A stretch of DNA of 64,000 bases from the NCBI GenBank assembly GCA_036172245.1, contig JAYWIR010000089.1:186001-250000 (forward strand). Direction: 5' to 3'. A model generated the notes under the pieces. The model saw nothing but the letters and a program-made list of their open reading frames with translations. It searched no databases and was not told the origin of the DNA. Made by a program: the position numbers and the translations under genes. Shown in pieces: positions 10,805-56,199 of the stretch. Every line of letters begins with the position of its first letter. Within the stretch, counting starts at the first letter, position 1. The stretch comes from Raillietiella orientalis. Lineage: Eukaryota.

Positions 10805-12845
10805 GTTGCCACCCGGGTACGCTTGCGGCGTTTATTGAAAACTCTACAAAAACGTGGTATGAGGTCACACCAACGGCCGCACAACATTGGACCTGCCAGG
10901 ACGCCCGTTCGCACCCCGGCGTGACGCTCCTCGGCAGTGGAGGGGAGTTTGGGAGAAGATAAAAATAAAATAAAGAAAAACAAAAGAAGTATGGAGGGAG
11001 GTAAAGGGATCACTATCCACTAGGAGGTGCGCCCATGCTTTGCAGGATAACGCCTAGCTCCTGCGTTTTTCCCAGGTGGGACCATATCGCATCTCTTCAA
11101 ATTAAGCTCACAGCATACGGGATGAGTTCCCTCTCGTTAGCATCCACTACTTCGAGACGAATGTCGCTCTAGGCCGCCATGATGCCCCGGAAGCAGCAGA
11201 GGGCTGCGAGGGCTGCAGCGGTTTGCAGGGTGTCCCGCACGAAGAGGGACCGAAGAACATCTCTAGGCGCGCTGCCCATTGGGAGTTCGAGGATGGTCCC
11301 GAACCGTTCCCCCAGGGTTCGGAGGGCAGCACAGTCAACTAAGAGGTGGGAGAGCGATTTTCGCTACCCACACCTGGCACACTCAGGCCCTACACTTTTT
11401 CGTGTCCAGTGGAAGCGGCACGCGTTGCAGGGTAGACTACAGTGCAACAGCAGCAGTGCCGTCTACTGACACTTAACGGGAAGAAGCCTGGATCCGATAA
11501 GAACTGGAAGCCACTTCAGGTCATCCGTCGGGATGCCGTGCAGCTCGCCTTATCTTGGAAGTCCACCCGGGAGGGCACTAGGGGTCATGGCGACTGCCAG
11601 TTCTCCCATGGTCCACGCTCTCATCTTTTTTTCCCTTCCTGCGATTCTGTAGGAGACTTGCCACTTTGGCGTCCTGCCGCTTTTTAGGGCCCTTTGTAGG
11701 AAGGGCCCTAAAAAGCTAAAGGGGTGGTCTGCACCCACGTGCTCCTGACGGGACACTCCAGAGTGCTCCGTAGGGTGCAGCAGGCGTTAAGGCCGAATCA
11801 CAGGCGGTTCCAATTTTCATTTCCTGGGTTGTTCAGCTTGGCCCACGTCGCAACAGATTCCTCCAGCCAAGCGGAGGAGTTGGCGGGGCTGCATACCGTT
11901 CAGCCGTTTTCCCCCATCAGGGCTCCCATACGTCCAAGGAGAAGGTCGCATCTCCTGACCTTTCGGCCGGGGCACAGAAGGAGAGACGCGAGTCCTTGCG
12001 TCCTGGATACACAGCTGGCGAGGGTGCGCCATCTCAGCTGTATGTCCAGAAGTTCCAACGTGAGGAGGTCAAGACCGCCGTCCCGACGCGGAGCGCATAT
12101 GTCTTAAGAGACGCACGAGGCCTCCCGTTGCCCCAGAGGGCGATGCAGAGAATGTCTTTTGCCCAATTCAAGTCACGGGGGACGAAGCACACAACGAGCA
12201 GGGGGCGGAGGATGGAAGCAGAGAACGCGTTCCACACCACGGCCCGTAACGACAGAGGGAACTTGCCTTATAGCGACGGGCTTACTGCCAACTCCAAATT
12301 ATGGAGACGACCTGACCAGGTTTCTAAGAGGCAGAAGTCCTACAACGTGACACCCAGGTACTTCAGGTACCAGGCCGCGGGGATCCCCAAGCGGATCCAG
12401 TCAGGCCGTCCGACCCACGTCGCACCAACCGGTAAGACCGACGACTTCGCCTTGCTTACCTGCAATCCAGTACCACGGCTTAGCAGGTCGAATAAATCAT
12501 CGACTGTGGCTGCCCCTGCGGACATGGGCAAAATAAGAAAAAGATCGTCGGCGTACGCAACTACTGCGGTCGTGCTGGGGCACGAGCTGGGAAAGGCAGC
12601 CAAAGTCACCCTGTACGCTCTCAGCACCAACTCAAAATAGGTGTTGAAGAGCAGAAGACTGAGGCTATCGTCCTGCTGTATGCCTCGCCGCACCGGCACG
12701 CCGTACACCTGTTAACAAGAAAACCTGTGAGCAATGACGTTGCGCCAGCAGGAGCGCAGGTACAAGAGAACGGAGGGTAAGAAGCCCATTGGACCCAGGA
12801 GCACCAACAGAAGCTCTTGGTCCACGCAGTCGACCGCCTTGCGTG
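10805..12845 (-). mobile_element. Element J: 5'-truncated decayed LINE with complete 3' terminus
   Basis: 12340..12708 VVAYADDL...YLKYLGV; 3' UTR; terminal AATAAA...CCCGGGTGGCAAC on minus strand at 10805-10836. Confidence 0.9.
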
Positions 12846-14037
12846 CTCAGTGGGGAAGTGTTTTCTCGGTGCTCCTCGTGCCAGGAAGTCTCCCCCAGTG
12901 CAAGAGTCGTGTGGTTCGGTGGTCGATCAGGGAGCGATGCCTGACGCGACCACCAGGGATGGACAGGGGGCAGCGGCAACGCCTCTCTCAGAGGCGATGG
13001 AGAGCCAGGGGGCGGCGGCAACTTCGCCCCTGGAGGCGATAAAATAGGGGGCGTGCGCCCCCACAGATTCGGTCCCCGCTGCAGCGCGGGCGTGAAGCGC
13101 CATTGTGTCGGCGCCATCGCCTGCAGCCGCGGCGGAATTGTCGGCCTATGTAGAGGAGGGATACAAACCCTCATTGTTCTACAAGGTAGGCAATTTATAT
13201 TCTTTACAGAGCGCGCGCGCCTTCTCGAAGGGTATGCGCGCTCTCGATGTGAAAGAGGAGGAGCTCAGCGCTATGACCATCCGCAGCGGGGGTCAGTACG
13301 GTGAGGTCATCTGCAAACAAGCAGAGCTGGACCAACGACTGCTTAAAACCCCCGTGGTAATGATGACGCGTAGGCTCCTCCCTATTACGGCGGACCGAAG
13401 CATGGTGGTCCACCTGTTAGGTGTTACCGCGCGGATGCGCAAGGAAGAGGTTCGCGCCGCGTTGGAGGAATACGGAACGGTCCACGCGCAGTGGATGAAA
13501 GTTAGTCCTTTCGAGGACTACACGGGGCTGAAACGGCCTCACTGCTGCGCGCGTGACCCTTTCGGAGGACTCCAATCTTCCCCACAAACTGGTGGTAGAA
13601 GGCGACACCGTTGACCTCTGGTATGTGGGGAAGCCGAAATACTGTGGCTTCTGCAATACGTCGGGCCACCTCAAAAAGAGGTGTCCCAATGTGCAGTGCC
13701 AAGTATGCAGAACCATGGGACACACGAGGGAGGTGTGCCCTAAAGCAACAGTGCGGGTAGTTACCAAGAGAAACCTTAAAAAACGTGCCCGGCATCTGCA
13801 GAAAAGGCTGGCGGCGAAAGCTGCCGCGAAGGCTGTGTTACCCGCGCCCAAGGCCCAGGCTGCACCCGAGACCCCGGCGAACAACGTCGAACAAGTCGAG
13901 GGAACAAGCCAGGAGCCTGGGTGGCAGGTGGATACGATCAAAAAATCAAAGCAGGAGAGGAAGATGGAGAAAAAGCTCGCGTACCGCCAGAAAACACAGC
14001 AGGCAAGCGAGCAAATTAAAAAATGCAGCGTTGTCGT
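12846..14037 (+). mobile_element. Element C, 5' part: 5' UTR plus frameshifted gag-like ORF1
   Basis: 13105..13614 and 13553..14071 carry CGFCNTSGHLKKRC and CQVCRTMGHTREVC (two CX2CX4HX4C knuckles); interrupted at CSVVV by element B. Confidence 0.9.
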
Positions 14038-14242
14038 TTATTACCCGGTTGCGCCGCGACGTTTGTTATAATATCAACTGAGAACTGTGTTCCCAGGCAA
14101 GGGGAACAGAAAATGGGGAGTAGATTTCCCGGAACGCAGTCCGGGCACACTGAGAGTTCGTAACGGGAGGGGGTGGGACAATAAATAAATAAACTGGGTG
14201 GGAGGGCGGAGACAGGGGTGTACAGTCTAACCGTTCCTATTC

Positions 14243-16757
14243 TCAGAACCGGCGGTGAATGCCGCCGATCTCCGTCCTCACTTCTGCTCCAAGATGTGGC
14301 CACCCGGCAGCCATTTGCAGGTTGCAGGCTGCGGTGTCAGGGACCGATGTTGGGACTGCTCGCATCAGTAATACGTGGCAGGCCCTAACAATAACGCGGA
14401 CGCAGCAGATGATTGCGACGACCGCTCCAAGAGAAAGTCCGCCACGCGTGTAGAAGCGGCGCATCCAATCCAGTGCGGTGTGTTCAGGGTGAAGGAGCGC
14501 TGAAGACAGCCGCTGCCACAGCTCCTGGAGGGCACCTCACTCAAACAGCAAATGCGGAAACGATTCCACCGCTCCGCATTTCGCACAGTTCAAGGACGCA
14601 ACTCCCCCGGAAATCAGGTGCGCCCGCTGGTTGCAGTACAAACCCCAATGCACCAGCAGGAAAGCGTCCTGCTTCCACCGAAGGGGGAAGAGAGTGGCGT
14701 CCAAACACGCAGAAGGGACCACAAGCTCATCGGTGGGCACCCCGAGGAGCTCACTCCACCGGAGAAGCCCCTTTGCAAGAATGCGAGGTGTGGCAGCGTC
14801 TGCCACTTCGCAAGTCCGCCAGCTGCCCAGCAGTCGGGTTTCGCCTGCGATTTCGCAAGTGATCTCCCACCTCGCCGGCAGGTCACTGTCATCTCGCACC
14901 ATCAGTGCACACAATGCTTCGGCGAGTGGCGTAGCGGCTAGGCGTGTCCACTGGTCCTGGTCTTCCAGCACCTCCCCACTGGACAGTATGGGGAAAGTTT
15001 CACGCAACGGAGTTCCAAACGGGACACATCCTGTTGCGCTGCCCAGGACGATAAGGCTTCCTGCCTCCAGGCGTTGAAGTTCGTCGGCCGGCAGGAGATT
15101 CACTAATGCTTTCCCAGAAGCGATGCGAGCTGCTTCAGAGGGAAGCCGAATCCTCTCTGGGCGCGCTCCGTGCGCAGATGCAACGAACGTAGTCCGTCGC
15201 CACCCGTGCTGCGCCGCAGCAGCAGCCGCGCTGGAGCACACCAGGGAGTAGTGAAGAGCTGCGAACAAAGTGCCAGCATGCGGAACTGCACTAGCAGTCC
15301 GATCCGCTCCAGCGTCAGGATGCCCAATCCTGCATCCCGCCGAGGAGCCGCCAAGTCCTTCAGGCGTATCCTGGACCTCGCCGGTCCCCACAGGGCGTTA
15401 CGCAACAGGCGTTGCGCCCGGCGCTTAGCCGAGTAGGGAGGGGAACAAACAAAAAAGAGGGGACGGAGGAGGGGGGCAACGAAAATGTTCCACACGAAGG
15501 TCCGTTCCGACAGGAGAAACCTGCCGCCTTGGAACGGGCCCAGAGCAGTCTCGGCCTTGTGAAGGCAGTCCGACCACGCTTCTGCTGGACAGAAGGCGCC
15601 CAAGGGAACGCCGAGGTACTTCAAGCACCTGATCGTGGGGATCCCCAGGCGGATCCAGTCGGACTGCCCCTCCAACGTAGAGCCAACCGCTACAACGGTT
15701 GATTTCGTCGTGTTCACGCTCAGGCCCGCTCCCCGACGAATGAGCTCGAAGAAGTCCTCTAGCCTGGACGCCGAGGTGGACATGGGCAGCAGCAGGAGAA
15801 GGTCGTCAGCATAGGCGGCCACGGCCGGTGTTCCCGGGCAGGAGCTCGGCAGGTTGGCCAGCGTCAGCCTGTACGCCCTCAGCACGAACCCAAAGAAGAT
15901 GCTGAAGAGCAGCGGGCCTAAGCTGTCCCCCTGCCTGATACCCCGCGTATGGGAACACCGTACACGTGACGCCCGCTGAAAGAGATACAGCATAACGCGT
16001 GGCGCCAGCAGGAGCGCAAGTAGGCGATGAGGTGCGTCGGGAGGCCTAGGCGTCCCAGAAGCTCTAGAGGGAGGTCCTGGTTTACGCTGTCGAACGCTTT
16101 GCACAGATCGACGGCGACCGATAAGGCTCCCGGCGTTCCATCGTGCCTTGAACACCGCCGCTTTTCTTTGGCAGCGGCGATTTCGGCTGCCTGGCTCTGC
16201 TGCGCTACGCGCTGCTGCGACTCGAACCATGTTCGCGCGAAGAAGAGAATCGCGTCCATGGACCGCCCCGGAACAGCATACGTCTGCTCCGGACTTACCA
16301 AGGACTCTGCGATTCTCCTCAGGCGCGCGACCCATAGCCTGGAGAACAACTTGACGTCCGAATTCACCAATGTGATCGGACGCCAGTTGCTGAGGTGGCG
16401 CAAATCACCGCCTTTCGGCAGGGGCCGCACCTTTGTTCAGCGGAAAGAAGCGGGAACATCTCCCGTCTCACGCATCAGCGAGGAAAGGCTTAGCACCAGG
16501 GGAACGAGCTTCGTCGCGAAGCACTGAAAGAACTCCGCGGGCAGGCCATCCTCCCCAGGCGCCTTACGCCTCTTCAGGCCCGCTGTGGCAGAAGATACTT
16601 CTTCCGCCGTGAAGGGCCAATCCAGTCTTGCGCGTTCCTCCTCGTCGATAGCACGGCTGCTCGTCGGAAGAAGCATCTCGGAGAGACTGCGTTCCGTGGG
16701 ATCCTCCGCGTACAACGAGGAGTAGTAGCGCTTGACTGCGCGGTGCACGGCGCACGC
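14243..16757 (-). pseudogene. Element B ORF2, RT and C-terminal zinc-finger part (frameshifts, stop)
   Basis: KAPGEDGLPAEFF, NWRPITLVNSDVKL, VDLCKAFDSV, GIRQGDSL, AAYADDLL, KYLGV, CAKCGAVESFPHLLFE across ORFs 16437, 15918, 15103, 14537. Confidence 0.93.
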
Positions 16758-16759
16758 AA

Positions 16760-19700
16760 CTTCGGGAGAGCGACAGCCGGAGCGCTCCGGCAACGCTCCG
16801 GCTGTCGCTCTCCCGAAGCGCAAAGCGGGCCGCAAGGTAGGCAACCCGCGGCGCTCCGCACCTCCACCGGCGGAGGAGGAAATGCGGTCGGACCACGACG
16901 ACGGGGAGGCGATGTCCGTGAGGTCTCGCGACTCCTCACCGGAGACGTCCCTGGCCAAGCAGGATCCTCCAACCACCACAACAACCACCGACGGACCGCC
17001 TCCTTGCGAGCAACAGCCCGTCGCAATGGATACACAACTCCCGCCTGCTGAACAGCAGGCGGAGGACGGTAAGCAAGCACAATAAACACACCAACGCGTG
17101 GACTCTCCTCCTGCCGGCGACTGCGCGTAATCTGTTGGAACGTCAACGAATTGCGCGACGACGGCAAGAGGAGAGAAGTGGCCGCCAGCCTGCGGGACTT
17201 CGACCTGGCGCTTCTGCAGGAGACGCACGTGCTCCACGCAGGGGAGGCCCAAGAAATCAAGCGGATCGCAGGCGGGCGGCTCGTATACCAAAACGGGAGA
17301 GACCACACCCGCGGTGTGGCTTTCATGCTGAAGCCAGCCGTCGTTAATGCGCTGCGCGACGTGCACTTCGACGGGGAAGGTCAAATCGGGCAGCTTGTTG
17401 CCATGTGGTCCGACGCGATCGACCTCGTCGTGACCAACGTGTATGCGCCCGGCACGAGCCACAGGCGCGGGGAACGCACTGCGTTCTTCGAAGGCCTGCG
17501 GCGAGATTGGCTGGCCGAAGCAGACATGCGAAAGGCGCACCTCATTGCCGGGGACTTTAACGTCCGCCTGCTGGCAGGTGCGCCCGACATTCGCGCACAG
17601 CTGGTCAACGAGATGTGCGCTGCCATGCACGCGCGCAACTTGTTGGCCGGTGACGCCAGGACGGAGACGAGGATCGACCACATGTTCCTCGACAACCACC
17701 TGTGTTCGCGGGTGAGAAATCGAGGGGCAGTGCCATCCGAACTTTCCGACCATCCCCGGCTCGCGCTAGAAATACACCCGCGCGGTAGAGGTCCACCCTC
17801 CACAGCGTGGCGTTTGCCAGGGGACTGGTTGCGCCTCGCAGGAGCAGCGCAACATCTTCGCTCGTTCCTGCAAGGCTTCCATCTGCAGTCGCTCGCGGAC
17901 TGGGACGACTTGAAGAGCTCAGTCCGCGAGTTCTGCGACCAGTTTCCTCTGAACCGTCTCCCTCCAGGTTTCGGCGGAGGGCTGAGGAACGACCGGGCAT
18001 ACCAGCACGCCCGTCTTTACTCTAGGACTCCCGACGTTCGACGCCTGGCGGAGTATAAAGCTGGGGCTGAGCGACAGACCTGGCAATCCGGGTCGCCCAG
18101 CCTGCTGGACGCCCAAGGCCAAGAATGCTCAGCTCCGGCGAGAATAAACCGCATCCTGCGGGACTATTACTCCTCCTTGTACGCGCGTAGAAAAACAGAG
18201 AACGCCGTGGCGCAGCGCTTGCTGCCGCAAGGCGCCCCCGCGTTGCAGGAGGAGCAGGCACATGAACTCGCGGAGCCTTTCTCGATGGCGGAGATCGTCT
18301 CCGCCATCGGAAAGCTCCGAAAGAGAAAAGCACCAGGGGAAGACGGTCTGCCCGCGGAGTTCTACCAAGGCTTCGTGGCGGATCTGGCCCCCCTGGTGCA
18401 TCGGCTATGCATGCTGATCCGACAACAAGGGGACGTCCCCAAATCGTTCCGGTCAGCTAGAGTACGTCTCCTGCCGGAAGGAGGAGACAATCGCAACGTA
18501 GGCAACTGGCGTCCCATCACAGTAGTGAATGCGGATGCGAAGTTGCTTGCCAAGCTTTGGGCTGAGCGACTGGGACGGGTGGCGGAATCCGTGGTGAGTC
18601 CGGAGCAGACATACGCTGTTCCCGGACGAAGCATGGAGGCCAAACTGTTACTCGCCAGTACATGGTGGCAGTTGCAACAAAGCCAAGACCAGGGAGGTCA
18701 AGAGAATCCTGCATTCTCCTCTGACCAGGGAGGGGACGCCCTTCATGGAAGAGCCGCGCCCGGTGCCCTTGCGGTCGCAGTCGATCTGCGTAAAGCGTTC
18801 GATTGCGTCGACCAGGAACTGCTTCTGGAGCTCCTGGAACGCTTGGAATTCCCGGCCGTCTTCCGGGCTTACCTGCGCTCCTGCTGGCGCTTCGCTCTAA
18901 TAAACATCTCTTTTAGCGGCCGGCACGTGTACGGCGTGCCGGTTCGGCGTGGCATAAGGCAGGGTGACAGTCTGAGCCCCATGCTCTTCAGCATCTACTT
19001 CGAGCTGGTGCTGAGGGCATACCGGGAGACTCTGGCAACCCTGCCAAGCTCGTGTCCCGGCACGCCTGCCGTGTCGGCCTACGCCGACGACCTTCTGCTC
19101 CTGCTCCCCGGGTCCACCCCGGCGTCGGCTCTCGAAGATTTCTTTGAGTTGCTGCGCCGCGGGACGGGCCTCGAGGTGAACAGAGAGAAATCTTCCATCG
19201 TTCCAACATCACCACAACTTTTCAACAATACGGCGTGGGCCGGACAACCGGACTGGATCCGCTTGGGGATCCCCACGGGCAGGTGCTTCAAGTACCTTGG
19301 CGTTCCGTTGGGGGACTTCTGCGTTGCAGAAGCCTGGTCCGACCGTCTCCGAAAGGTGGAGTTGGCGTTCGGCCCGTTCCGGAACAGCAAGTTTTACTTG
19401 CAGGAGCGGGCCGCGGTGTGGAACGCGTTCGCGGCCCCCCTCCTTCGCTTCTTACTTTTTGTTTGCCCCGCCCCTCCCATCATAAAGAGACGGACCAAAG
19501 CCCTCTTGAGGACTGCCCTTTGGGGCACAGCGAGGTCGCGAGTCCGATTGAAAGACTTGTGCGCTCCACGCAGGGATGGTGGCTTGGGCCTCCTTACGTT
19601 GGAGCGCATCCAACTTCAAACAACAATTCGAAAGTTAGCCCTTGCGGCTAGCTCATGGATGACGCCATGGTGCGATCCGGCACGGCTCCTCGCCAGAAGA

Positions 19701-20952
19701 GCGACCGGCTGCGAAGAATTGTCCTCGATCCTCGTGGCCTACCAGCGCAGCCTCTCCAACTGTGGTCCCGATTTGCGCCTGATGGTCGCCCTGATGAGGG
19801 AGAATACCTGGATCTCCTGCATCCCCGCGAACTGCACTGCCTGGCTTCAGGAGTCAGCTTCCGCGTGGGCTAAGATCAAGGGCACGAGTGAGGCGGAATA
19901 CAACTGCCTACGACGAGGACCGTACGCTCGACAGCCGCTGCAGGATATTATCAACACGCCCCGGAAGTTTCTGTGGGCTTCTTTCAGCCCCCTTGCCCCC
20001 GTTCTATCCTCCCTGAAAAACAGTAGGAGCAGCAACGAGCTGGCATCGTGGGAAGTTTCCAGCCTCATCCGAGGCAGGAAAAAACCTTTAAAGGCGTGGA
20101 CGACTCGGGAGCTCACGGACGCTGCCACCCCGAGCGTCCCGCCTCACGGACTTGCGCGCTGGGGAGAGCTGCTCGCAATACCTCCGGAGGAGGTGAAGTG
20201 GCCCCCAGCGTGTTGGGATTGCAGCACCCTTCCGTTGAAGTGGCAGGAGACGGCGTTGCTATTTCTGCACTGGGGACTGTTAAGCAGAGCACGCCTGTCT
20301 CACTGGACACTGGGGAATGTGGATGCCCGCTGTGTCGAGTGCGGAGAAAGAGAAACCTTCCCGCATCTCACCCTCGAGTGTGTCGCCCTGGATGGACTCT
20401 GGAGTCGAATCGCCCCAATCCTCCATCTTCCAGTAGGCTACCCTAAGGAAATTTACCGTCGCCTCTTTCTGCGTGACGGCCTGCGCCCCGCTGCGTCTCT
20501 AGCAGTCCTCTGCTGCGTGCGCGGCATTGTGCAAAGGTGGCACGCCAGAAGAAGAGGCCCAAGATGCAGGGACGCCATCCACTGGACGACGATCTCTTTA
20601 GAGACGGCGACAAGGTGGCGTCTACCTTTCACAGTTAAAGCAGAACTTGACTGCATCCTTAACAGGATGCGGAGGACCGACCCAGGCGCCCAGTGATCCC
20701 TTCCCTGCCCCCCCCCTCTCCCCATACAACTGTTTCCTTCCCCGTTATCTCTCTTTTTGTTTGTTTTTGTTCTAGTTTTCCCTTCCCATGCGCCTCGGGA
20801 ATGGACCTAACCGGTCTATGCACCGGCAACCGACACGTCAACCAAGGTGCGAAAACCAAGTGTTTCCCACAATTAACTTTTGAAAGACTTTATTATCTAA
20901 TTTTTGAAGAAAATTAGAATAATAAATGCCCCGGCATATCCGGGTGGCAAAC
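16760..20952 (+). mobile_element. Element A: 5'-truncated LINE (ORF1 tail, complete ORF2, 3' UTR) inside element B
   Basis: ORF1 tail ends at 17085; ORF2 ends at 20696; UTR ends AATAAAtgccccggcatatccgggtggcaaac; both flanks are adjacent parts of B ORF2 on the minus strand. Confidence 0.93.
17094..20696 (+). CDS. Non-LTR retrotransposon ORF2 (APE endonuclease, reverse transcriptase, CCHC zinc finger), uninterrupted frame
   Basis: ORF track 17151..20696, 1181 aa; frame is open from ACG at 17094, the position of ATG in sister copies. Motifs WNVN, LQETH, NVYAP, GDFN, RIDH, SDH; WRPI, DLRKAFD, GIRQGDSLSP, YADD, KYLG; CVECGERETFPHLTLEC. Confidence 0.95.
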   Translation, partial: TRGLSSCRRLRVICWNVNELRDDGKRREVAASLRDFDLALLQETHVLHAGEAQEIKRIAGGRLVYQNGRDHTRGVAFMLKPAVVNALRDVHFDGEGQIGQLVAMWSDAIDLVVTNVYAPGTSHRRGERTAFFEGLRRDWLAEADMRKAHLIAGDFNVRLLAGAPDIRAQLVNEMCAAMHARNLLAGDARTETRIDHMFLDNHLCSRVRNRGAVPSELSDHPRLALEIHPRGRGPPSTAWRLPGDWLRLAGAAQHLRSFLQGFHLQSLADWDDLKSSVREFCDQFPLNRLPPGFGGGLRNDRAYQHARLYSRTPDVRRLAEYKAGAERQTWQSGSPSLLDAQGQECSAPARINRILRDYYSSLYARRKTENAVAQRLLPQGAPALQEEQAHELAEPFSMAEIVSAIGKLRKRKAPGEDGLPAEFYQGFVADLAPLVHRLCMLIRQQGDVPKSFRSARVRLLPEGGDNRNVGNWRPITVVNADAKLLAKLWAERLGRVAESVVSPEQTYAVPGRSMEAKLLLASTWWQLQQSQDQGGQENPAFSSDQGGDALHGRAAPGALAVAVDLRKAFDCVDQELLLELLERLEFPAVFRAYLRSCWRFALINISFSGRHVYGVPVRRGIRQGDSLSPMLFSIYFELVLRAYRETLATLPSSCPGTPAVSAYADDLLLLLPGSTPASALEDFFELLRRGTGLEVNREKSSIVPTSPQLFNNTAWAGQPDWIRLGIPTGRCFKYLGVPLGDFCVAEAWSDRLRKVELAFGPFRNSKFYLQERAAVWNAFAAPLLRFLLFVCPAPPIIKRRTKALLRTALWGTARSRVRLKDLCAPRRDGGLGLLTLERIQLQTTIRKLALAASSWMTPWCDPARLLARRATGCEELSSILVAYQRSLSNCGPDLRLMVALMRENTWISCIPANCTAWLQESASAWAKIKGTSEAEYNCLRRGPYARQPLQDIINTPRKFLWASFSPLAPVLSSLKNSRSSNELASWEVSSLIRGRKKPLKAWTTRELTDAATPSVPPHGLARWGELLAIPPEEVKWPPACWDCSTLPLKWQETALLFLHWGLLSRARLSHWTLGNVDARCVECGERETFPHLTLECVALDGLWSRIAPILHLPVGYPKEIYRRLFLRDGLRPAASLAVLCCVRGIVQRWHARRRGPRCRDAIHWTTISLETATRWRLPFTVKAELDCILNRMRRTDPGAQ

Positions 20953-22008
20953 TTCGGCTGCAGCCGAGCATTCCTGGCCAGCGTCATCGAGCAGACAAGC
21001 CGCTCCAGACTGCCAAACCTGGCGTTCGGCCCTGGCCTTATACTCCGCCAGACGCCGGACGTCCGGGCATCGTGAAAAGGTACGCGCCTGCAGATAGGAT
21101 CTGCTGTTCGCGACGACCTCCCCGAAGCCGCGGGGAAGCAGGTGCAAGGGGAAACGGCAGCAGAACTCGCGGACCGATCTTCTCAGATCGTCTTAGTCCT
21201 CGAGTTCACAGATGGCGAAGCCCCGGAGGTGTTGGCGGAGATGGTCCACCGCCTGCGAATTGCTGAGCCAGTCGGCCGGCAGCCTCCAGACATTCATCGT
21301 AGGCCCTTTGCCAGGCGGAAGGAGCTCTAACTCCAGTCTAGGATGATCCGAAATCGCGGACAGCAGGCGCCCTCTCCGACCTACTCGTGAGAGCAGGTGT
21401 TCATCGAGGAACGCATGGTCCGGCAATCTCTCCATCCCGGGCTCACCAGCAAGCAAGTTTTTCACGTGCACGGACGCGCATACCTCGCTCACCAGTTGCT
21501 TCTCTCTCAAGCGGCATCTCTCCTCTGTAAGCAGGTGGACGTTGAAGTCTCCTGCAAGGAGGTGCGCCACGTTAGGGCAGGAGTCAGCGAGCCAGCGGCT
21601 GCGCAGGCCACCCAGGAATGCAAGTCGCTGGGCGTAATGCCGGCCTGCGCTCGGAGCGTAGATGTTCGTAAAGACCAGGTCGACCGACTCGGACCACTTG
21701 AGGACAAGTTGGCCCACACGACCTTCCTCGTCGGAACAAACGTTCCGCACCGCCTCCGCCACCCTGCCTCGGACGAGGAACGCGACTCCGCACGTGTGCG
21801 CGGAGCCTTGCCGCCAGTGTAGCGTCCCGCCCGCGCGCTCTTCCAGATCCGATGCCTCCCGTACGGAGATGCTATGTATCTCCTGCAGCAGCACTAGATC
21901 GAACGCGCGCAAAGCGTTGGCTACCGTCCGCCTTTTGTCAGCATCACGTAGCCCGTTCACATTCCAAGAGGCCACGCTGACGCGACGAGCGGACGCGAGT
22001 CCACGCAT
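20953..22008 (-). pseudogene. Element B ORF2 endonuclease and linker
   Basis: 21193..22023 WNVNGL, LQEIH, NIYAP, GDFN, SDH; frame broken near 21193 and cut by element A at GQECSAAAE. Confidence 0.93.
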
Positions 22009-23950: not shown

Positions 23951-24035
23951 CCCAGTGGACGCACTCGGGCACACCACACACAAAAAGACGGAAAGGAATC
24001 ACGCTCGAGGAACAACACAGTACACGTCCGTGCGG

Positions 24036-24303
24036 GCGTCGTCGTCGAGCGTATTCCCGACCGCTGCGTAAAAGAACTCGCCGCTACCGACGACAACCCC
24101 ACTGTTGACTCTGTCAACAGCGAGGGGAGCGAGCCGGCGGCGTCGTCCGTCGTCGACACCACCATCGATGACGTAGCCTTCGCGCGAGCCGCGGAAGAGC
24201 TGGCAGCCTCGTTGCAGCCAGAACCCTCCAAGGCTGGCAAGAAGGCCGTAAGGCGTCCGGCCTCCCCTCAGGAGTCCCCCACTTCCGACCCCGAGGTGGA
24301 TGC
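24036..24303 (+). mobile_element. Element C, middle ORF1 fragment resuming after element B
   Basis: VVVERIPDRCVKELAATDD...KKAVRRPASPQESPTSDPEVDA continues CSVVV of 14037 and aligns to element L ORF1 (KKAVRRPA). Confidence 0.85.
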
Positions 24304-24519
24304 TTATTATCTCTCTTTTTGTTTGTTTTTGTTCTAGTTTTCCCTTTCCATGCGCCTCGGGAATGGACCTAACCGGTCTATGCACCGGCAACCGATACGT
24401 CAAGCAAGGTGGGAGAACCCAGTGTTTTTTCCACAGAAAACATCTTTTTAAAGACTTTATTATCTAATTTTTGTAGAAAATTAGAATAATAAATGCTCCG
24501 GCATATCCGGGTGGCAAAC
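24304..24519 (+). mobile_element. Isolated A/C-family 3' UTR and terminus
   Basis: Close copy of ~20745-20952 including AATAAA and ccgggtggcaaac end. Confidence 0.9.
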
Positions 24520-35277: not shown

Positions 35278-35290
35278 GGACGCGGGGAAG

Positions 35291-40967: not shown

Positions 40968-40986
40968 AAAAAAAAAAAAAAAAAAA
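40968..40986 (+). repeat. Poly(A) run of about 19 nt
   Basis: gtggc followed by an A-run in an AT-rich spacer. Confidence 0.8.
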
Positions 40987-45800: not shown

Positions 45801-48800
45801 CTCGAGAAAGTCCAATGTACGCTAACTGCAAATAACCTCCTTGCTGTCCTCACTGTATTTGCTTCCTGTTTTAGTGCATTCGGTATGGGATTCGTGCCTT
45901 CGTATTTGCAAAAGAATCGCTTTTTCCCTTATGGTTTTGTTGGAAGCTGATATCTTTGCAGTGATGAAGTTCTCACACTGTTCAAATGGAAGTGGAGAGT
46001 CGCGACTAATGAGTTGAAACTGGCACATAGTTCTGAAAGGAAAACTAAGGAACGACTCTTGAGAAGAACTTAAGGAAACCGGATGCTGCCTGCGGAGATC
46101 AACGGTGCATAACTGCGGAGATGAGTTCCTTCCAAAATCGTGGAAAACGCTGGAGCCTGGCGCCTGAGAAGAACTTTACCTCTTCCGGCAAGTCAAAGTT
46201 AGATTCCTTCCAAAGAAGGAGTTCTCACTCCAATGTGGCTACGAAAGCTCATTGCTACGGATAACCGCGCAAGCCATGTACGTTGACAGGCTGCCAACTG
46301 ACTGGATGACGAAAAGAGGAGCATCAGGGATACGTCCGCAGTCCTGCGCTGTTCGTTCATGAAGTATGGTATCCAAATCGTTTCTCTTCAGCACATGGAC
46401 GAACGTAGAAAGACCGATTGCACCCTGAGAAAACGGAAGCACGGCACTATTCGAGCGAATATTGAACGTCTCACACACGGTGTAAGAAACGAAGATCCGG
46501 AAGCCCTTTCGGTTGGGTTTGCTTTGTACACCAGATTTGAGTACACAGATTCCAAGTCTTTGTGTAACACTGTCGCTAATCTTGTTCAGAAATTGACATC
46601 GAAAGTCGTCAATTAATCTTTCGAACGCATCAGTGTTCCGCCTGGAACCATGTACGGGAGGACGTGCATTTTCGCGCGGTCCATCTTCGAAAGAGACGCT
46701 CTACACCCAATTCTAGTACGGAAATGTTCAGCTTCCCACCGTGCTTCCAACTTCAAAATGAAATCTTCCTTTCTTATTTGATCAAAATATGTCGTTCTCA
46801 AGAACGTGCGGAAACCTTTGCGATTCCAACATGGTATCCGGAGGCACCAGCTGTCAGGGCTCATCTTGCGCGAAGCGGCATTGGTTGCCACGGTAACAAC
46901 GGCAGTGGTCTTCAGCCAAAGTATCCGCTGTTTGAGTGGACACATCGAGGGTTTGCAAGTAGAAAAACATCCATTGATGTCTTCATTATGTGGAAGACGA
47001 ATGATGCCAATGCATACGCTGCTTGCAAGTAGATTCCTGAGTAATTTGCGAGAATGTTACAACGAGAAGTTGGTCATTTGACTTCTTTCGCAAACTCTAT
47101 TTTTTTTTTCCCTTGCGAAGATTTCTCTGGATTATTTTCTTGCGGAAAATGCCTTTTCAAACAAGCTTCTACGTACTTACACTTCCATTCAACTGAGAAA
47201 GATCGATTTTCATTTGAAATGGCTCGACACTTTATTTACTAAATACATTCAACGTTGATGGTTCCAATGAAATTAAGTGACAAACGCCAGAGAAGTGGGA
47301 AATCTCATCTCGGACTATTTTTGAACCGTCTGGTTATTTACAGGGAGGTTTTCAATTTGAAGTGAGCGCTTCGTCGTTCTGAGATCATGAGCAGGCGGTC
47401 TTGCAGTTTGTGCAAAGGAAGCGAAAACCCAGAGATCTGAGGAAAAAGTTGCTCGTTTGTTAACTTGCTTGTGGCCTGGGAGGCAGTTGGATGATATCAA
47501 AATTTTCCTTACCTTTGCTAATTAACAAACCAGGAAGGGAAAAATTAAGTTCTTCTATACGGTCAAGGTACCATTCAATGCGGTCGACATCCCTCTGGGG
47601 GCACAGTAAGGATGCGTGCTTATCAGCTCTAGCGCAGAGGTTCGAATGTCCTTATAGTCAATGAAATTAGAAAACGCCCAATTTCTTTGTTCGTGAATTG
47701 CCAACCATCAATGTATTTCTTCCCGATTACGCGTCCATTATTCCATTTTCCTTATGCTATGAAGGCACTCCTACAAACGAATGTCCGAAGTATCCACCCA
47801 ACTCCTTCGAGATCTTCATCACAGCATTTCATTGGCGTCACACCGGGAGTCGCGAATCTGTTCCTCATGTCATCTTGGACAGATCAGCTGTACTGACCTC
47901 TCTTTCAAAGTATGAACCGACCTTCCTCTTGCGAAAACACATGAGAAAAAGGAAATTCAGCTTATGTCCAGTTATTTGGATCGATATGAAACGCCCGTCA
48001 TGCCATAAAGTCAGCAGACTTTTGTGCCAATGCCCACCCTTTCAATAAAACCAAAGAACAAGAGGTTAATAGCTTCATTTTAGCAAACATGTGAAACAAA
48101 TTGAGCACTTTGTTTCCATCATTTTGATTCGGTAACTTCTTGAAATTCCAGCCAGCAATCGGTGTTTTCTGGAAACGTGCAATTTGCAACGAATGGAGTC
48201 TGCAGTATCAGTTTTTCATTTTCTTGGCCAGGGAGTCTGAAACATAGCTGCAGTCAAAATTGGCGGCAATGCAATTCAGAATTGGAGACGCATCTCCTTA
48301 TGTGGATCCTATTGGGCATAGAAAACGGCTCCTCCGATTCAGAGATTTAAATTTTCAAAAAACTGTTACTCCATATTTACTTATTGAAACGTTTTCATAC
48401 GTTCCACTGCACGCTTGATAGCGCAGCTTTAGAGTGCTAATCTCAGCCGTCGGTCTCCAACGAGAAAAGACTTTCGTGCATCTTGAATGCTTCTTTGACG
48501 CTAGCTGCTCGAATGCTGCAGCAAGACGCTACTTTACCTGGGATCAGGGTGGAATTCGCAGCCACATGTCTTCTCACCCCCTGAAATGTCTACAAGCACA
48601 GATTCATCAGAGTTTCCCGCAGACTAAGAAAATCATTTTAAAACTTCCAGAGTGCAGTAGGAACTTACTTCCACGCGTACCGAACAAGGTGTTTCATGTG
48701 GTGGTGGCAATTCATTTGGTCCCCATCCTTGCTTGCAGATTGGATGTATGTCTTGACTCACGTCGTTGGCAGTCTCAAAAACGAACGAACATTCTCCTTG

Positions 48801-51419
48801 GATATTTTGAAACTCAAGGGCGAATTCCGTAGAACGGAGTGAAAAGAACTCCAGAGCTCCCAGGTTGCTTTCGATGAAAAAAGCTACCACCAGCAGCAGC
48901 CTCTGAAACTTGAAATTTTTAAAGCAGCACAACATTTACGATGCGTGGAAACCTAGCACGAATGACCAACGGAAACTGCAAATGTCAATCATAGTCTTTC
49001 CTATGACTCTTAGACGGAGGAATAGTTGGCCGATGGTGCTGCGATAAAAGAACAAAACCATTCCACATAAGACGATTGGTTCCTTCTTTCAGAATTCGAA
49101 ACTCCCTACGCAATATTGTCGGAATGCTTGCGTTCTCCCGGAGGCTATTCTGTTCAGCAATGCCATTACATGTCCGATCCACACGTCTCGTACCTCAACC
49201 CTCTGCCACTCACTTCGTATTACAGGGAAAGTATATCCTAGCGCCATCTCAATACACTTGCCATCGTATGATCAGAAAACGAGGAAGCGTTTCTTTATGA
49301 AACTGCACTTCCAAGTTATGCACGTAAACAGAAATTAGCACAGAACTCGCCGCATAGGGGACTCTACGCTGTACGTTTTTCGCGGACTAATGTACAGATA
49401 AGGAAAACGGTATTTCCATGAGCGGAAGTGGCCAGTTGCAAGGAAATGAGCAAATCGGAGCGACGATCCGCTGACTGCAGAGTTATTCTAAAACTCAATT
49501 TGCTGACCGTTCTCCGCCTCGAGTTGATTGCGACTAAGCAAAGCCGTCACTCGACACCATTCGGGTGCATCTCCAAAGCAACCGTTGGGCTTTCCCTTAC
49601 AGCTTGCTTGGCTGACGCTTGAGAGACGGAAAGAATTCTCACCATACTCATCCTTGGAATTGTCATCGGTTGCAGGTTCTCCTTTATTCCTGTTTGCTAT
49701 TCACTTTAGTCTTCGCCACACCAGGAAACGTTACCTCAACTGCGAAAGCGGAACGTATCTGCATCAAAAGTTATCCAGAGTTGCTGGTTTTACAAATGCT
49801 GCAAGAAGCGCAGGCAGCAGACCATAAATGCAGATACCACGAGATGCTTGCGTCACTTGTATGGGAGTCTTCGAAAGCACAACATGCGTGATTTTCGTAG
49901 ATGCGAAGCACATGTTCCCAGTCACGTGCTCTGAGCAAAAAGGAATGCTTCAAAATTGATTTTCATTTTTAATAACATATGCACTTGTTGGAAGGCGCTG
50001 TTGTTTTTTCGCCCTACTGTGCACATGCTGTGCTAATTTGCTGGAAAAAGGGGTCCATTGGAGCTTGTTGTTGTTGCAAGAGCCCAACAGATAATAATAA
50101 TTGCTTTCCCGATCTAAAAATCCAAGTTGATCAGCTATGGCTGCTGCGAATGCTCTCAGCTGAATTTGTCGGAATAATCTTTTTGAATTCTTTCAGCAAT
50201 TGAGGGGCAATTTTTTCAGGTGCTAAGCAGAGATGCAGCTCCTTCATGCGGTCGCGAATTCTTTAATCGGTTTACTTTCTTGTTCATAGAACAGCAGGGC
50301 TGTTCTTGAGACTTCCTGAAGCACACGATCAATGAGTAGAGAAGCAAATTCTGAAAACTAATGGATTCCAACAGGAATGCCATGCACTCACGTATTAAAA
50401 ACTTGTGTATGGAATTATCATTCCGGAAACGTACACACCTCTTGAATCACTTTAGTATGGATGTCCTTTTCTTAGTTATTAGTGACCACTTTCTAATACC
50501 TTAAACTCTTATGAAATCAGGATACAAATTTCGACCAATCAACGGAGTTAATCATTAAAATGCCTCTGCAAATTCCTTCGCAACGACGGAAAGCACGGCA
50601 TATGTGTTGCACGGCATATGTTTTAGAAGAACGAATGAACTACCTCCACTTTGGCAAACATCATAAAATGGTAATAATTGCGTTGCAGAGGACTGTATCG
50701 CACAGGCGAGTTCTTCCAGAGGCAATCTTTAAACACATTGTCGGTTAGCGAATGGCTTCTGTAAAGATCTTGGAAGTCAGATTGCTCCGGGCAGCGACGC
50801 TGCCACGAATCCAAGATGCCTGCATAGCACCGCAAATGGCACCGCAACGGCCAATGCATCACGAGCAATGTAGCGTTAGCGAGTGTATTTGGCACAGCAA
50901 AGTGAAGTTTCTGTGGCGGTAAGGGGACAACTCGCAAGGAGGCAGAAGGAATAGCACTTTGATAGGTGCGAAAAAGTCGTTTTCTTGTTCTACCTATCAG
51001 AATGGACATCCGCAGAACCCAGCGTGGTCCAACGAATCCGTGTCCTGCATGGGATTCGCCACTGCAGCACTTGCGACTTCTGCAGCTGCCATTCGAAGGG
51101 AGAGATGCCACTGTTCCTCCCGCAGGGCAATTGCGAGAACTGCCCTCCAGGGTAACATTCGTTGGAGTGGCGCACTCGCATTCGCGGAGCCATTTCCTGC
51201 TTTTCTTTATATTGCTTTCCCGCGTCGTTAAAGGCTGATCGCTCTTGGTTCCTGGTCTGGAGATTCAGCAGTGAGCACAGGGTTCAACAAAGCCGACAGT
51301 AGCATCTTGAGATTCCTTGTATCTCTCTCCACCGCTGAGGATCGTTCTTGGTTCCCCAGTAGGATATTTCTCTGGAAAATTTGAATAGGATGAAATTCTA
51401 AAATCAACTCCCCGTATAC

Positions 51420-52150
51420 ATTTAGTGCCATAACACGCGGTTCCGCCTTTCTTGGAGCAATTTTCTCTACCGATCCAAAGTCCGGTGAGATTTTCTATCC
51501 ACGAGCATGAAATGGGAAAACCACAAACAAAGAAGCAAACAAATAAGAAACAGAAGGAAAGGCAATGTTTTCTGGGAAGGAGAGGGATGGGAAGCAATCA
51601 CTGCTAATCGCGCATGGTCTTCTGCAACCAGCTGTAATGCGGACAAATGCAGGTCTTAGGATTCGAAGTCACCGTAATTGGAAAGTCTTCCCCATCGAGA
51701 TGGCTATGCAGTGAATAGTGTTCCGGCTGCTGCAGCCCCTCCTGGACACAGTCGCGTTGTCCAGAATTGCTTGTTTCCGGAAACGAACTGCAGCACACGC
51801 GGCTGATGGACGGGAGTGCTCCATGTGGGAGCATAGAAAAATGTTTCTCGAGTCGCCCTATTGAATGTTTAAAATCAACGATCTTCGAATCCACATGAGG
51901 CGGAGGGTGACGAACTCGTTGCTTAGGTGGGGGAAGGATTGGCTCTTCCTGCATCCCGCACAATAAACATGTACGCCACCCAGTGTCCAGTGGGAGAGGC
52001 GTGCTGCTCAAAGGAGTGCTCACTGCAACATATGCAGAGCCGTCTTCTGACAAACCAAGAGGAGAGTGCCAACTGCCCATAGTTCTGAGAGCTGCTTCAA
52101 TCTGTCGGATCTATGGCGAGCAGATCGTTCAAACCAATGGAGCTTCTCCG
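51420..52150 (-). pseudogene. Old A-like LINE 3' end remnant
   Basis: Remnants of PLHWV..CLLCG zinc-finger region and a T-rich UTR resembling that of element A. Confidence 0.6.
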
Positions 52151-52189
52151 CCGCCTTAAGGGCCTTCCAGCTTTGCTGCTTCTGCCATG

Positions 52190-54082
52190 CGAAAATTCAC
52201 GTTATTTCCACACAAAAAGCGCGTACGGCGTGCCGCTGCTGAGCGGATTCAGGCGGGCGACTGCCTAAGTCCCCTGCTCTTTAGCAAATTCAACTGTGCC
52301 GAGAGCGTACAGGGAGCTTCCGGCTACCTGGCTGAGCTGGTGCCCTGGCACGTCGGATGTGTCTGCGCATTCTGACCATCAACTGTTTTTGCTGCCCATG
52401 TCTGATCTAAGCTCCGCAGTCGAGAAGTGTTTCGAATTACTGGACCGCACGACATAACTGAGGGTGAAGAAGGTGATGTCGGAAATAGTAGTCGTTGATG
52501 TAACGTCGCCAGGACGACCTGGCTGGATCCGTCAGGACATCCCCAGGGAGATGTACATGAAGATACTTGGCGTTCCTTCCGGGGATTTCTGCTCGTCGGA
52601 GGTTTGGTCATTCGCCTTCAGAAAGTGCTGTTAACTATCGGCTCGTTCCTCGAACGGAAGTCTTACTTGCCGGTACGGTCCGAGGTGTGGAACCTGTGTG
52701 AGACATTCCTCCTTCACCCCATGCTTTTTGTTTGTCCCATCCTGGTAGAGATTGAAGAGAGGAACAAGAACCTCCTGCGATTTGCCCCTTCTGTGCAAAG
52801 TGATGGCTTTGAGTCTCCTTAAAGTGCTTCTGCGCCCCGAGTCGGGATGGTGGTCTTGGCTTCCTCATGCTGCAGTGGATGGAAATTTATCTGCGATGGA
52901 GAACAATGGCCATCGCAGCGAAGTTGTAGAGCACCTCTTGGTGCGCCCAATCCGGACACCTCTCCAGCCGTGTATCCCGCACTCGAGGTCTTGCATCTTA
53001 TCTTTTACGTCGCGACAAGAAGATAAGAAGTTGCCGCCTTCTCTTTGAACGCATAGCCACCTTGGCTAAGGAGACAGGGTGGATGGTATGCAGCCTCGCC
53101 AACACCAGCGCATGGCTGCCAGAAACTTTTGGCAGGAGGGTGACCATAAATGAAAGGAACAACTATACTTGGAATAGCCTGCGTTTTGGACCCTATGCCC
53201 GCTGCAGTCTGCAGGAGATACTAAAGTGTCCGGCCAGAAGCACGAGGAGAGAGAAAACCCCCTAGGTGCGGCGCTACCCTTTCATAACAAGGGACTTATT
53301 TGCAGCCGCAGGCGAAGTTCGCAAGTCTCCTGGCTTATCTCAGGCAGAATTGAGATTGTACGCGGTCATGCCACAGGACAGCTGGCACACGCCAAAAGCC
53401 CATCCTTCTTTCCGCGAGGACTTCTGAAATGGTGCGAGCTGCTAGGCATCCCGACGGAAGACCCGATGTGGCCATCAATGTTGAGACACTCATCCAACTG
53501 TACTGTTGTTGTTGAACTGGGGCTTTCCCTGTAACGCACGCTACCTATTCTTGACGATGGAGAGTGTGAGATTGAACAGTGCAGTGTGAGGGGAAAAGGA
53601 ATCCCTGCTCCACCTTCTAGTGGACTGCTCTGCACTCCAGCCTTTGTAGGAGGTTTCTGCGTTGACCCTTCGGTGCCCGGTTCGCATGCTTGCCTTCTCT
53701 TTGTGCGGGACGCTTTTCAACCAACCTCTGCTCTGGCAACGCTATGTTAATTCTGATGGATTGTGGCGGCGTGAAGAGCAGCCAATAGGGGAATCAGGGA
53801 GAGAGCTACGGTATACTCTGTTCGCTACCTGCGAATTGCGACCAGATGGCCTCAACTTGGAGCTATGCTGAGGGATATCCAGGACATCTTGAGAATTGTG
53901 GTCCCTCCGCTCAGCGGGCAAAGATTTCTTCTCGACTCATCCAAGTGTTTTTTTTTTTTTCTGTTCTAGTTTTCTTTTTGTTCTTTCCTCCCTTCCTTCT
54001 CCGTTACCGGGGACAGTCGAGTCTCACTGCGCAATGGCTTTTCAGCATGCCCCAAGATCTATTAGCCCCAGCGGGCCCTGGT
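52190..54082 (+). mobile_element. Element I: decayed RT to 3' UTR; terminus continues at 56106-56173
   Basis: IQAGDCLSPLLFS, GPYARCSLQEILKCPARS, GLLKWCELLGIPTED; UTR split by H with cagcgggccctggt duplicated. Confidence 0.85.
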
Positions 54083-56105
54083 TTTTCACCCGGGTGGACC
54101 GGGGCTTTTATTATTAAAAATTTTTGCAAGTACAAAAAATTTCATAATAAAGTCTTGATTTTGTCGAATAGAGTTTTTTCTTTTTTGCTCTGTTTTTCAG
54201 TCGGAACACACGATCCGACTGTCTTGTGGCACTTGTCCTTACCGGCTCGTAAGCCGATTAGGTCCTCCACACTGACGAAGGGGCGGGAAAAACAAAAATA
54301 AAACAAAAAAAAACAAAACGCCTGGGAGAAGAGTTCTTTAGAAGGGGGGGAGGAAAGGGAGCAGATCACGTTACTCCGTGAGGAGGCGTCTGCATCCGGT
54401 TAAGCATGCGAACAAGTGCCGGCAAATGTTTTAGGAGTCGGCGCCAACGTCAGACCTTCTCCAAGGAGATGGTTGCCCAGTGGATAACATTCCGACTGGT
54501 ATGTCCTCTCCTTGACCCGGTCCACTAGTCCAGGATTCCGCGTATGCAACAGAGCACTGCTACACACCCGGAACCTGGCAAGGCGTCCTGCATCAGGAAG
54601 CTTCTAAATAATTTTTTCGGGTCGCCGACCGGAATGTTCAGGATCGACGACAGTCGGTCCCACCCCTCCCGGAGGACGAGCTGGGACCGAATGCCAACTC
54701 CAGCGCATGGCTGGAAGAAACAGTTGGAACGTGGGCAAAGATAAACAATATCAGTGAAGAATCCTGCAACGGCCTGCGTACCGGCATCTACACCCGCTGC
54801 ACGCTGCGGAACATGATCGTGTGTCCCGCCAGAAGCACATGGGCGGAGACGACCCCACTGGCTACGGTGCTACCCTTCCTACGGAGGGCGCTCCAAAATA
54901 TTCGGTAACCTAGATGGCAAGTCTCCTGCCGGATAGCGGGCAAAGAGAAGGATCTGACTGGGTGGACCATAAGGGAACTGGCTGACGCCGCGACCCCAAG
55001 AGTTCACCCGCATGGACTACGGAGATGGGGCGAGCTGCTTGGCATCCCGACGGATGACCTAGAGTGGCCCCCGTCGTTCATTGATTCATCAATCCTCCCC
55101 TAAAGTGGCAGGAAACGGCGCTGTTGTTGTTGCACTGGGGTCTTCCCTGCAACGCGCGCCGCCACCACTGGACGTGGGGGAATGTTGAACAGAACTGTGC
55201 AGTGTGCGGGGAGAAGGAATCCCTCCCCCATCTGTTAGTAAACTGCACTGCCCTCCGGCCCTTGTGGGAACGTTTTGCTACGAACCTTTCAATGCCGGTA
55301 GGCAGCACCCCCAGAGACGTTATGAGACTCTTCTTCGTGCGACACGCCCTGACAGCAGCCTCAGCCCTGGCAGCACTTTGCTGCCTCCGAGGGATTGTGG
55401 CCGCGTGGAGCGCAGCCAACAGAGGAAGCAGCGACAGGGATCCCATCGTACACGCTGGTCGATACCTGCGAATCGCGATCGGCTGGTCCCATCTGGGAAC
55501 AATGAAGAGGGATCTCGAGGGCATCCTCGAAAGGATGGTCTCTTTCTCCAGCGGGCTGTGATCCCTTCCCGGCCCTCCAAATAGTTTCTTTTCGTTTATT
55601 TCTTTTATTTTTCTTTTCGTTTTTACCCCCTATCCCCTCCGCTGCCGAGGAGTCAAGCCGGCCTGCGAGCCGGCTTCCCGGCAGGTCCAAAGAACTATTG
55701 GCCGTAGCGGGGCCTCGTACCGCGAAAACATAGTGTTTAGCAATAAACGCCCCGGCGTGACCGGGTGAAAACTCCCGGAGGGCAACACACTTTAGAATCA
55801 GGTGGGAGAAGGTCTCCCGTTCCCCGCACTCTGTGCAGCTGGCATCCACATTCCCCGATGTCCAGTGAGACAGGCGTGCTCTGCTTAGAAGTCCCCAATG
55901 AGGCAGAAGCAACGCCGTCTCCTGCCATTGCAGGGGAAGGGAGCCGTTATCCCAACCCGCTGGGGGCCACTTCACCCCCTCCGAAGGTATGTCGAGCTGC
56001 GCGTTCCAGCGTAAAAGTCCATTCGGCGGTACAAGGGGTGTACTAGCGTCCGCTAGTTCCCGAGACATCCACGCCTTTAACTGTTTTTTTCTGCCTCCGA
56101 TAAGG
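54083..56105 (-). mobile_element. Element H: short 5'-truncated LINE 3' end, interrupted by G
   Basis: CTECGERETFSHLILKCVALRE (55772-56105) continues as LREGWDRL at 54675; terminus at 54081-54112; 14-bp TSD 54069-54082 / 56106-56119. Confidence 0.9.
54676..55771 (+). mobile_element. Element G: 1.1 kb 5'-truncated E/F-subfamily insertion
   Basis: 55124..55561 differs by one residue from 30127..30564; TSD ctcccggagg at 54666-54675 / 55772-55781. Confidence 0.93.
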
Positions 56106-56173
56106 CAGCGGGCCCTGGTACCGCTATTGCGCAGGGAGTTTGAATAAACGCGCCGGCGTGACCGAGTGAAAAC
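56106..56173 (+). mobile_element. Element I 3' terminus
   Basis: AATAAAcgcgccggcgtgaccgagtgaaaac at 56143-56173. Confidence 0.85.
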
Positions 56174-56199
56174 GTTAGACGAGGCCACCATGGCACTCT

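Follow-up and report, generated by a model that had tools for sequence, protein, structure and literature searches.

How do copies of long interspersed nuclear elements (LINEs) come to lie inside one another, layer upon layer, with the newcomer nearly always on the strand opposite to that of its host? The question is raised by a stretch of 64,000 nucleotides from Raillietiella orientalis (GenBank assembly GCA_036172245.1, contig JAYWIR010000089.1, positions 186,001 to 250,000), referred to here as the window. An earlier reading of its letters, the original prediction, had proposed antisense nesting of LINEs in LINEs, and the bias turned out to be stronger than first stated: 15 of the 16 insertions with a readable host are antisense to it (binomial p = 5.2e-4). 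All results below come from this one 64-kb window; coordinates are window positions, and those marked q are positions in the query of open reading frame 2 (ORF2).

To map the copies, tblastn with ORF2 and ORF1, self-blastn and blastn against three reference copies were used. A GC-rich island (55-63% GC, about 7.1-46 kb and 51.6-57.7 kb), surrounded by DNA of 45% GC, was found to consist of L1-type LINE copies, of which about 23 were mapped. The sole intact ORF2 belongs to element A (17073-20696, 1207 aa). It matches the Pfam families Exo_endo_phos (48.4 bits, cut-off 24.5) and RVT_1 (84 bits, cut-off 29.6), while zf-RVT stays below its cut-off (24.5 against 27.5 bits), with CxxC...HxxxxC codons seen in the alignment. 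The nearest solved structures in the PDB are those of human L1 ORF2p (E = 6e-49), against about 1e-12 to 6e-15 for R2 proteins. ORF1 of element E matches zf-CCHC (21.9 bits, cut-off 20.8); that of element B contains CGICGAEGH...CRYCKQLGH and gave no Pfam match at E <= 0.01. The elements are thus LINEs of the L1 superfamily with an apurinic/apyrimidinic endonuclease (APE), a reverse transcriptase (RT) and a CCHC-type ORF1. The best database relatives are 24-28% identical and bear uninformative names. Hallmarks of target-primed reverse transcription (TPRT) are present, namely target-site duplications (TSDs) of 5-12 bp at A, B, E, G and H, 5' truncation of most copies and a 5' inversion at A. The 3' ends consist of AATAAA, a 5-bp stem with a 5-nt loop and then (G)AAAAC, and no poly(A) was found at the 3' ends of the mapped elements. 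The hairpin energies alone were not significant (z -0.5 to -1.6). Metagenome matches to the 3'-tail motif occurred at two loci that resemble neither the LINE proteins nor the window, and were discarded as chance.

Orientation of the nested copies

The nesting forms chains of alternating strands. In the longest, A(+) lies in B(-), B in C(+), C in X(-) and X in K(+), giving five layers. D(+) lies in L(-) and holds E(-) and F(-) at one place and C'(-), itself carrying B'(+), at another; B''(+) lies in C''(-) and this in D''(+); and G(+) lies in H(-), H in I(+) and I in M(-). The two alternating three-layer chains described earlier are therefore present and deeper than had been thought. Every junction named at that time was recovered as well (B in C, A in B, E and F in D, D against L, H in I, and G in H), and what had been listed as a J(-) 3' end abutting K(+) was taken to be the 3' end of X(-) at 10805, which adjoins K(+).

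The strand bias holds in every way in which it was counted. S2(-) was excluded from the tally, as its 3' end is missing and its host is not readable. Where the flank of a 3' junction is a LINE, the insert is antisense in 11 of 12 cases (p = 0.006), and the strand switches at 20 of the 25 junctions between LINEs (p = 0.004). Three junction types occur in two or three copies each, so that random orientation, inflated by duplicated junctions in a small sample, might in principle have produced such numbers. When the duplicates are collapsed into lineage and site classes, however, 10 of 11 are still antisense; the p-value at this level is only 0.012, but the one listed exception that could be resolved also proved antisense (see below). 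Chance therefore strikes us as a very improbable source of the pattern.

Two junctions, at 56173 and 24519, had been put forward as apparent exceptions, and only the second is one. The 230 nt to the right of 56173 encode, on the minus strand, VPPQNLQRWGQSLGDPP, which aligns with ORF2 q1022-1038 in a frame that continues to about q1050, and the sequence to the left of the 5' end of I is M(-) with ORF2 q1038-1176. Since halves of M(-) flank I on both sides, I, with H and G inside it, sits antisense in M(-). Junction 24519 is the sole same-sense junction: here the last 213 nt of an A-like element, with no base missing at the 3' end, run into B'(+), which starts at B coordinate 3124. The entry point of A itself in B, on the opposite strand, is 40 nt away from this position. 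Either a sense insertion accompanied by a large 5'-side deletion or a chimera could account for the junction; in the latter case, the RT would have changed template, leaving B RNA for the 3' end of an A RNA.

With 12 copies on the plus and 11 on the minus strand of the chromosome, neither direction prevails, and the polarity is therefore one relative to the host element. The original prediction of strand-polar insertion holds in this host-relative form, and host-relative strand polarity of insertion exists in the window. Young copies obey it too, as seen with G, which is 95.8% identical to E, and with A and its intact ORF2; their orientation speaks more for a bias at the time of insertion than for slow filtering. 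Replication direction fits poorly as a cause, as there is no bias at the level of the chromosome, and so does base composition, the skews being near zero over A. A silencing locus that the host selected, similar to a small-RNA cluster and kept since antisense pairs give double-stranded RNA, would profit from the alternating strands, which would yield abundant overlap of sense and antisense RNA if the island is transcribed. In one-strand clusters of the flamenco kind, the elements are known to face all in one direction along the chromosome. The near-equal numbers on the two strands and the alternation are unlike such a cluster, and selection on a whole cluster would hardly set the orientation of each single insertion; this origin appears most unlikely.

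Reuse of exact landing sites

The original prediction held that scattered target positions spoke against single-site specificity. This does not stand, as exact sites are reused within the lineages of C, B and E/F. The clearest case is a block of the X-C-B type that occurs three times, so that the junctions of B with C and of C with its host are each found in triplicate. Between the left and middle blocks, C and C' are 94.3% identical (1114/1181) and B and B' 92.4% (2483/2687), while the hosts X and D share only 69.0% (982/1424), and the drop in identity falls precisely at the 5' nucleotide of C. The third block differs more from the other two (C'' 71%, B'' 79-81%, and host D'' 54% identity). 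All three hosts of C begin at the identical GTC/TTC codon of an AV-AVDLRKAFD stretch (hyphen at the junction), which we take to be RT motif A as known from L1 ORF2p. Thus, the C lineage, full length to the identical 5' base, entered three hosts that are 54-69% alike at one nucleotide and antisense. Simple segmental duplication of the block was ruled out by the fall in identity from 94-97% to about 70% exactly at the 5' end of C, and a single read-through retrocopy of B, C and host was ruled out by the same drop.

The 3' ends of the B lineage in all three C copies read AAAC or AAAG, followed by GACAACGCTGCA. The third insertion of B into C is clearly independent, so that at least two of the three are; the first two could be independent, gene-converted between inverted arms, or co-copied. 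The inverted arms in question (12850-16726 and 24520-28391) measure 3.9 kb each, comprise the 5' part of C and the 3' part of B, are 92-94% identical and enclose a 7.8-kb spacer. Their outer ends are the 5' end of C, and gene conversion between them is possible.

E and F used one nick, after GGACRCGGGGAA, in HWT(L/R)G codons; the CGERET codons, also considered as their site, were ruled out by alignment. An example of the mapped landing-site stretch is CACTGGACRCGGGGAA. At the time of E's insertion, the nick was followed downstream by the tail of F and not by D. As the nick was reused despite this changed context, the nicked strand seems to carry the recognised sequence on the 5' side of the nick, and recognition at this side also explains the head-to-tail pairs. 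E carries a near-copy of its own target. Reuse by C in three hosts, by B in three C copies, and by E and F at one nick is the behaviour of target-specific LINEs.

The anatomy, the TSDs, the exact-site reuse and the strand rule are direct observations. The explanation that we favour, and hold to be rather probable, is that about ten related L1-type lineages form a guild whose members home by TPRT into one another's sequence and have in this way built a Zepp-like pile. Each lineage would recognise its own short site in a host element, and the recognised sequence would lie just 5' of the nick on the nicked strand, as the sequence comparison suggests. In all readable cases but one, the nicked strand would be the host's sense strand, so that the cDNA is primed from it and the newcomer comes to lie antisense. 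The recognition sequence would survive beside the 3' end of the newcomer and could be cut again, which may produce head-to-tail pairs of one lineage in an antisense host (E/F and probably S2/S3). Repeated across lineages, these steps would build the strictly alternating Russian-doll chains.

A different possibility is that insertion was unbiased and that sense nests were later lost by recombination between direct repeats or failed to spread. In the latter case, the AATAAA-hairpin terminator of a sense insert would cut host transcripts, and only antisense nests would be co-copied with their host. Every element indeed carries AATAAA, a 5-bp hairpin and the AAAC tail, and C/C' and B/B' are equally diverged (94.3% and 92.4%), as if C with its antisense B had been copied as a unit, a process that would multiply antisense junctions. 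However, co-copying inflates copies and not classes, of which 10 of 11 are antisense, and the recent inserts (G, and A with its intact ORF2) are antisense as well. Loss by recombination, one of the explanations offered in the original prediction, also fits poorly: insert and host are 66-73% identical (A/B, E/D, F/D and G/H) or, as with B ORF2 in C ORF1, unrelated where they meet, and an identity of 66-73% is too low for efficient homologous recombination. Filtering after insertion is, in our view, quite unlikely.

Strand choice could also be guided by the state of the host, in that transcribed copies or those in RNA:DNA hybrids would expose their non-template (sense) strand for nicking by any lineage at any site. 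Such a single step would cover the same polarity of about ten lineages with different sites, and it agrees with a polarity that is set relative to the host, the chromosome having 12 plus and 11 minus copies, and that young copies already follow. On the other hand, many hosts are 5'-truncated and without a promoter of their own (e.g., D, X, I and H), and nucleotide-exact reuse of sites requires sequence recognition too. De novo insertions of human L1 are not known to have a strand bias of this kind linked to transcription, which weighs further against this possibility. We consider it unlikely; if true, host-state strand sensing would be a mode of LINE integration that by itself builds alternating, centromere-like islands prone to form double-stranded RNA.

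Several observations count against mutual homing by TPRT, or limit it. Site homing accounts for the orientation lineage by lineage but not for the use of the host's sense strand by all of the approximately ten lineages. The classes come from a single window and may be non-independent if a strand preference was inherited from a common ancestor of the lineages. The positions of A in B and of the A-like piece in B' differ by 40 nt and are on opposite strands. The identities of 92-94% for C/C', B/B' and A/A-like could mean that the arms were gene-converted or copied as a unit, in which case the B'/C' junction would be non-independent of B/C. G, so close to E in sequence, used a different, G-rich site about 75 nt downstream in H, and H's own copy of the E/F motif is unoccupied; the specificity is real but degenerate, not absolute, at least for the E/G lineage. 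The window contains neither the 3' end of C nor, for this reason, its nick site, and no nick consensus common to the lineages was found.

Copies, junctions and flanking sequence

At the left end of the island, the outermost host K(+) is seen as a piece with ORF2 q10-129 (7132-7504) and a 92-bp piece with q272-305 (10713-10804, alignment score 102) between S3 and X; the first was located by tblastn and blastn, and the link between the two is suggested by their colinearity. S2(-) (7584-8890) is 5'-truncated and 81% identical to A, and stands head-to-tail with S3(-) (8895-10719), which is 5'-truncated, covers q632-1202 and adjoins K(+) with its 5' end. S3, and probably S2 with it, lies inside K, judging from colinearity and an assumed deletion of about 1 kb. 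X(-) (10805-12849) extends from RT motif A, where C interrupts it, to its 3' end (AATAAA...GGCAAC).

The 5' part of C(+) (12850-14037) comprises the 5' untranslated region and the N-terminus of ORF1, and its full-length 5' end adjoins X(-). It is followed by B(-), which is full length with 5.8 kb minus A and is split into a 3' part (14038-16765) and a 5' part (20953-24035), where ORF2 begins and a 617-aa ORF1 frame encodes CCHC knuckles. The TSD of B noted in the original prediction, gcgttgtcgt (14028-37) and gcgtcgtcgt (24036-45), matches at 9 of 10 positions, with a chance of 3e-5 at fixed positions. Between the parts of B lies the 5'-truncated A(+) (16766-20952), with a TSD in B of 5-8 bp, TTCGG up to AACTTCGG. 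At its 5' junction there is a 25-nt perfect inverted repeat with a 9-nt loop (16760-16818), the inverted stretch being given as 19-25 nt, whose outer arm begins with the target's CTTCGG. Twin priming, in which a second nick is primed on the RNA, leaves such an inverted copy, and the arrangement resembles a short inversion of this kind, putatively primed from the target's CTTCGG.

Beyond B, the segment at 24036-24306(+) is presumably the continuation of C, as suggested by the TSD copy at 24036-45; it has no homologue within the window. Its reading as facing remainders of C was rejected, the palindrome, judged by eye, being only about 15 nt long. Next come the A-like 213 nt (24307-24519, plus strand), 92.3% identical to A, B'(+) from B coordinate 3124 to the 3' end (24520-27208) and the 5' part of C'(-) (27209-28391), whose 5' end adjoins D(+) at motif A.

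D(+) runs from motif A to the HWT(L/R)G codons (28392-29913), where it stops at q1082, and resumes near q1091 at about 38114 with its 3' part, the end of which, at 38686, adjoins L(-). In between lie E(-) (29914-35277), full length with 5364 bp and flanked on both sides by a 12-nt TSD (GGACACGGGGAA and GGACGCGGGGAA, 11/12 match), and F(-) (35290-38108), which is 5'-truncated and 82.9% identical to E. Roughly 20 nt of D, from the codons around VDARCVEC, are absent between the E/F site and the point where D resumes (29913 and 38109-38125), so that the 5' junction of F appears to have brought a small target deletion; a TSD copy proposed at this end of F was dropped on the same alignment. L(-), the host of D, is represented by its 5' part with ORF1 and ORF2 q1-100 (38687-40740, 5' limit approximate).

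Two AT-rich spacers free of LINEs lie within the island (40745-41283 and about 45900-51600). The first contains 19 consecutive A (40968-40986), possibly the tail of a further retroposon. Between the spacers stands the third block, with B''(+) (41284-43120), 5'-truncated, the 5' part of C''(-) (43121-44252) and D''(+) (44253-45900, 3' limit approximate), the host of C'' from motif A on. To the left of B'', no similarity to a continuation of C'' was found, and AT-rich non-LINE DNA is present instead. The whole block is flanked in AT-rich DNA by GAAACGTCCGCA (41270-41281) and GATACGTCCGCA (46329-46340), which agree at 11 of 12 positions and could be the TSD of a block moved as a unit; its right-hand end is unlike a LINE tail.

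The right part of the island begins with the 3' half of M(-) (51600-52196, lower limit approximate), into which the main part of the 5'-truncated I(+) (52206-54080) is inserted. H(-) follows with its 3' part (54081-54676) and, beyond G, its 5' part with q998-1106 (55773-56105). The TSD of H in I was expected to have 14 bp; it is present with 12 bp, CAGCGGGCCCTG, identical at all 12 positions (54069-80 and 56106-17). The 5'-truncated G(+) (54677-55772), with its 5' end at 54677, shows the predicted 10-bp TSD in H, TCCCGGAGG(A/G), with 9 of 10 matching. The last 67 nt of I(+), including the 3' end (56106-56173), the 5'-side remainder of M(-) with q~975-1050 (56174-56405), and N(+) (56406-57700), an old copy with q488-936 that stands head-to-head with M, complete the island. 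No TSD was found for I, D, X or the A-like piece; for C the 3' end, and for D, X and I the 5' side, is absent from the window or rearranged in it.

The entire LINE island is bracketed by a 3.6-kb direct repeat, 96.2% identical, at 1-3618 and 60383-64000. This repeat is of low GC and yielded no protein family, and the 13 ORFs of the flanks matched no Pfam family; comparison with a protein atlas yielded LINE clusters that carry no taxa. Positions 38001-58000 were also compared with a public sequencing run (X1, 0.25 of the sampled words). Its 177 pieces, 91 of them less than 90% alike and the eight displayed 151-280 nt long, neither bridged nor contradicted a junction and revealed no empty sites. 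Four short contigs of this run continue past the E/G-type tail (55768) into other flanks with a consensus agreement of 0.67, which hints at further copies of the E/G lineage elsewhere.

Relation to known LINE systems

The island resembles, in its arrangement, the clusters of Zepp in Chlorella/Coccomyxa C-169 and of ZeppL-1_cRei in Chlamydomonas, where GC-rich L1-type LINEs insert into existing copies and form nested, gene-free clusters. Self-targeting LINE clusters of this kind are regarded as the likely centromeres of several green algae. The part of the Coccomyxa C-169 report available to us gives 61% GC for Zepp against 53% for the genome and describes nested GC-rich clusters, one per chromosome (PMC3446292); according to the accessible text of a second report, ZeppL and Zepp target existing copies and thereby form tandem arrays of 3' ends (PMC8226300). 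Like them, the present island is GC-rich (55-63% against 45% in the flanks) and contains head-to-tail pairs (E/F). In contrast to them, the lineages here are several and diverged (54-73% identity) and enter one another at fixed nucleotides, the nesting is mainly antisense instead of tandem 3' ends, and the elements end in a hairpin and AAAC with no poly(A) seen. An orientation rule is not stated in the accessible portions of PMC3446292 and PMC8226300, the scope of which did not extend to Higashiyama 1997 and Yamamoto 2003. Likewise, an antisense rule for nesting of LINEs in LINEs was not found in the literature searched, which left most subscription papers outside its scope.

Tx1L in the Tx1D transposon and R1 in 28S rDNA are examples of target-specific LINEs. 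Target-specific families concentrate in the early-branched, Tx1 and R1 groups, as stated in the portion consulted of PMC4640811. Like LINEs of the Tx1 and R1 clades, the copies described here enter a multicopy target at a single exact sequence and in a fixed orientation, the target sometimes being another transposon. They differ in that the targets are coding motifs of sister LINEs, possibly of their own kind, as E has a near-copy of its target, and in that many lineages form a mutual network, all antisense. An antisense excess of L1 and other retroelements within transcription units is also known from mammalian genes, with the terminator signals of the elements proposed as the reason in the available text of PMC3517506. 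The mammalian bias is put down to selection that acts on host genes once the element has inserted, while the hosts here are dead transposon copies, and the reuse of sites points to a bias at insertion.

The island supplies nucleotide-level landing sites for several sister lineages, together with a countable rule, that the newcomer is antisense to its host. If this rule holds genome-wide, it would give a handle on target recognition by APE-type LINEs, that is, on which strand and which sequence relative to the nick is recognised, and it would bear on the self-assembly of gene-free repeat domains.

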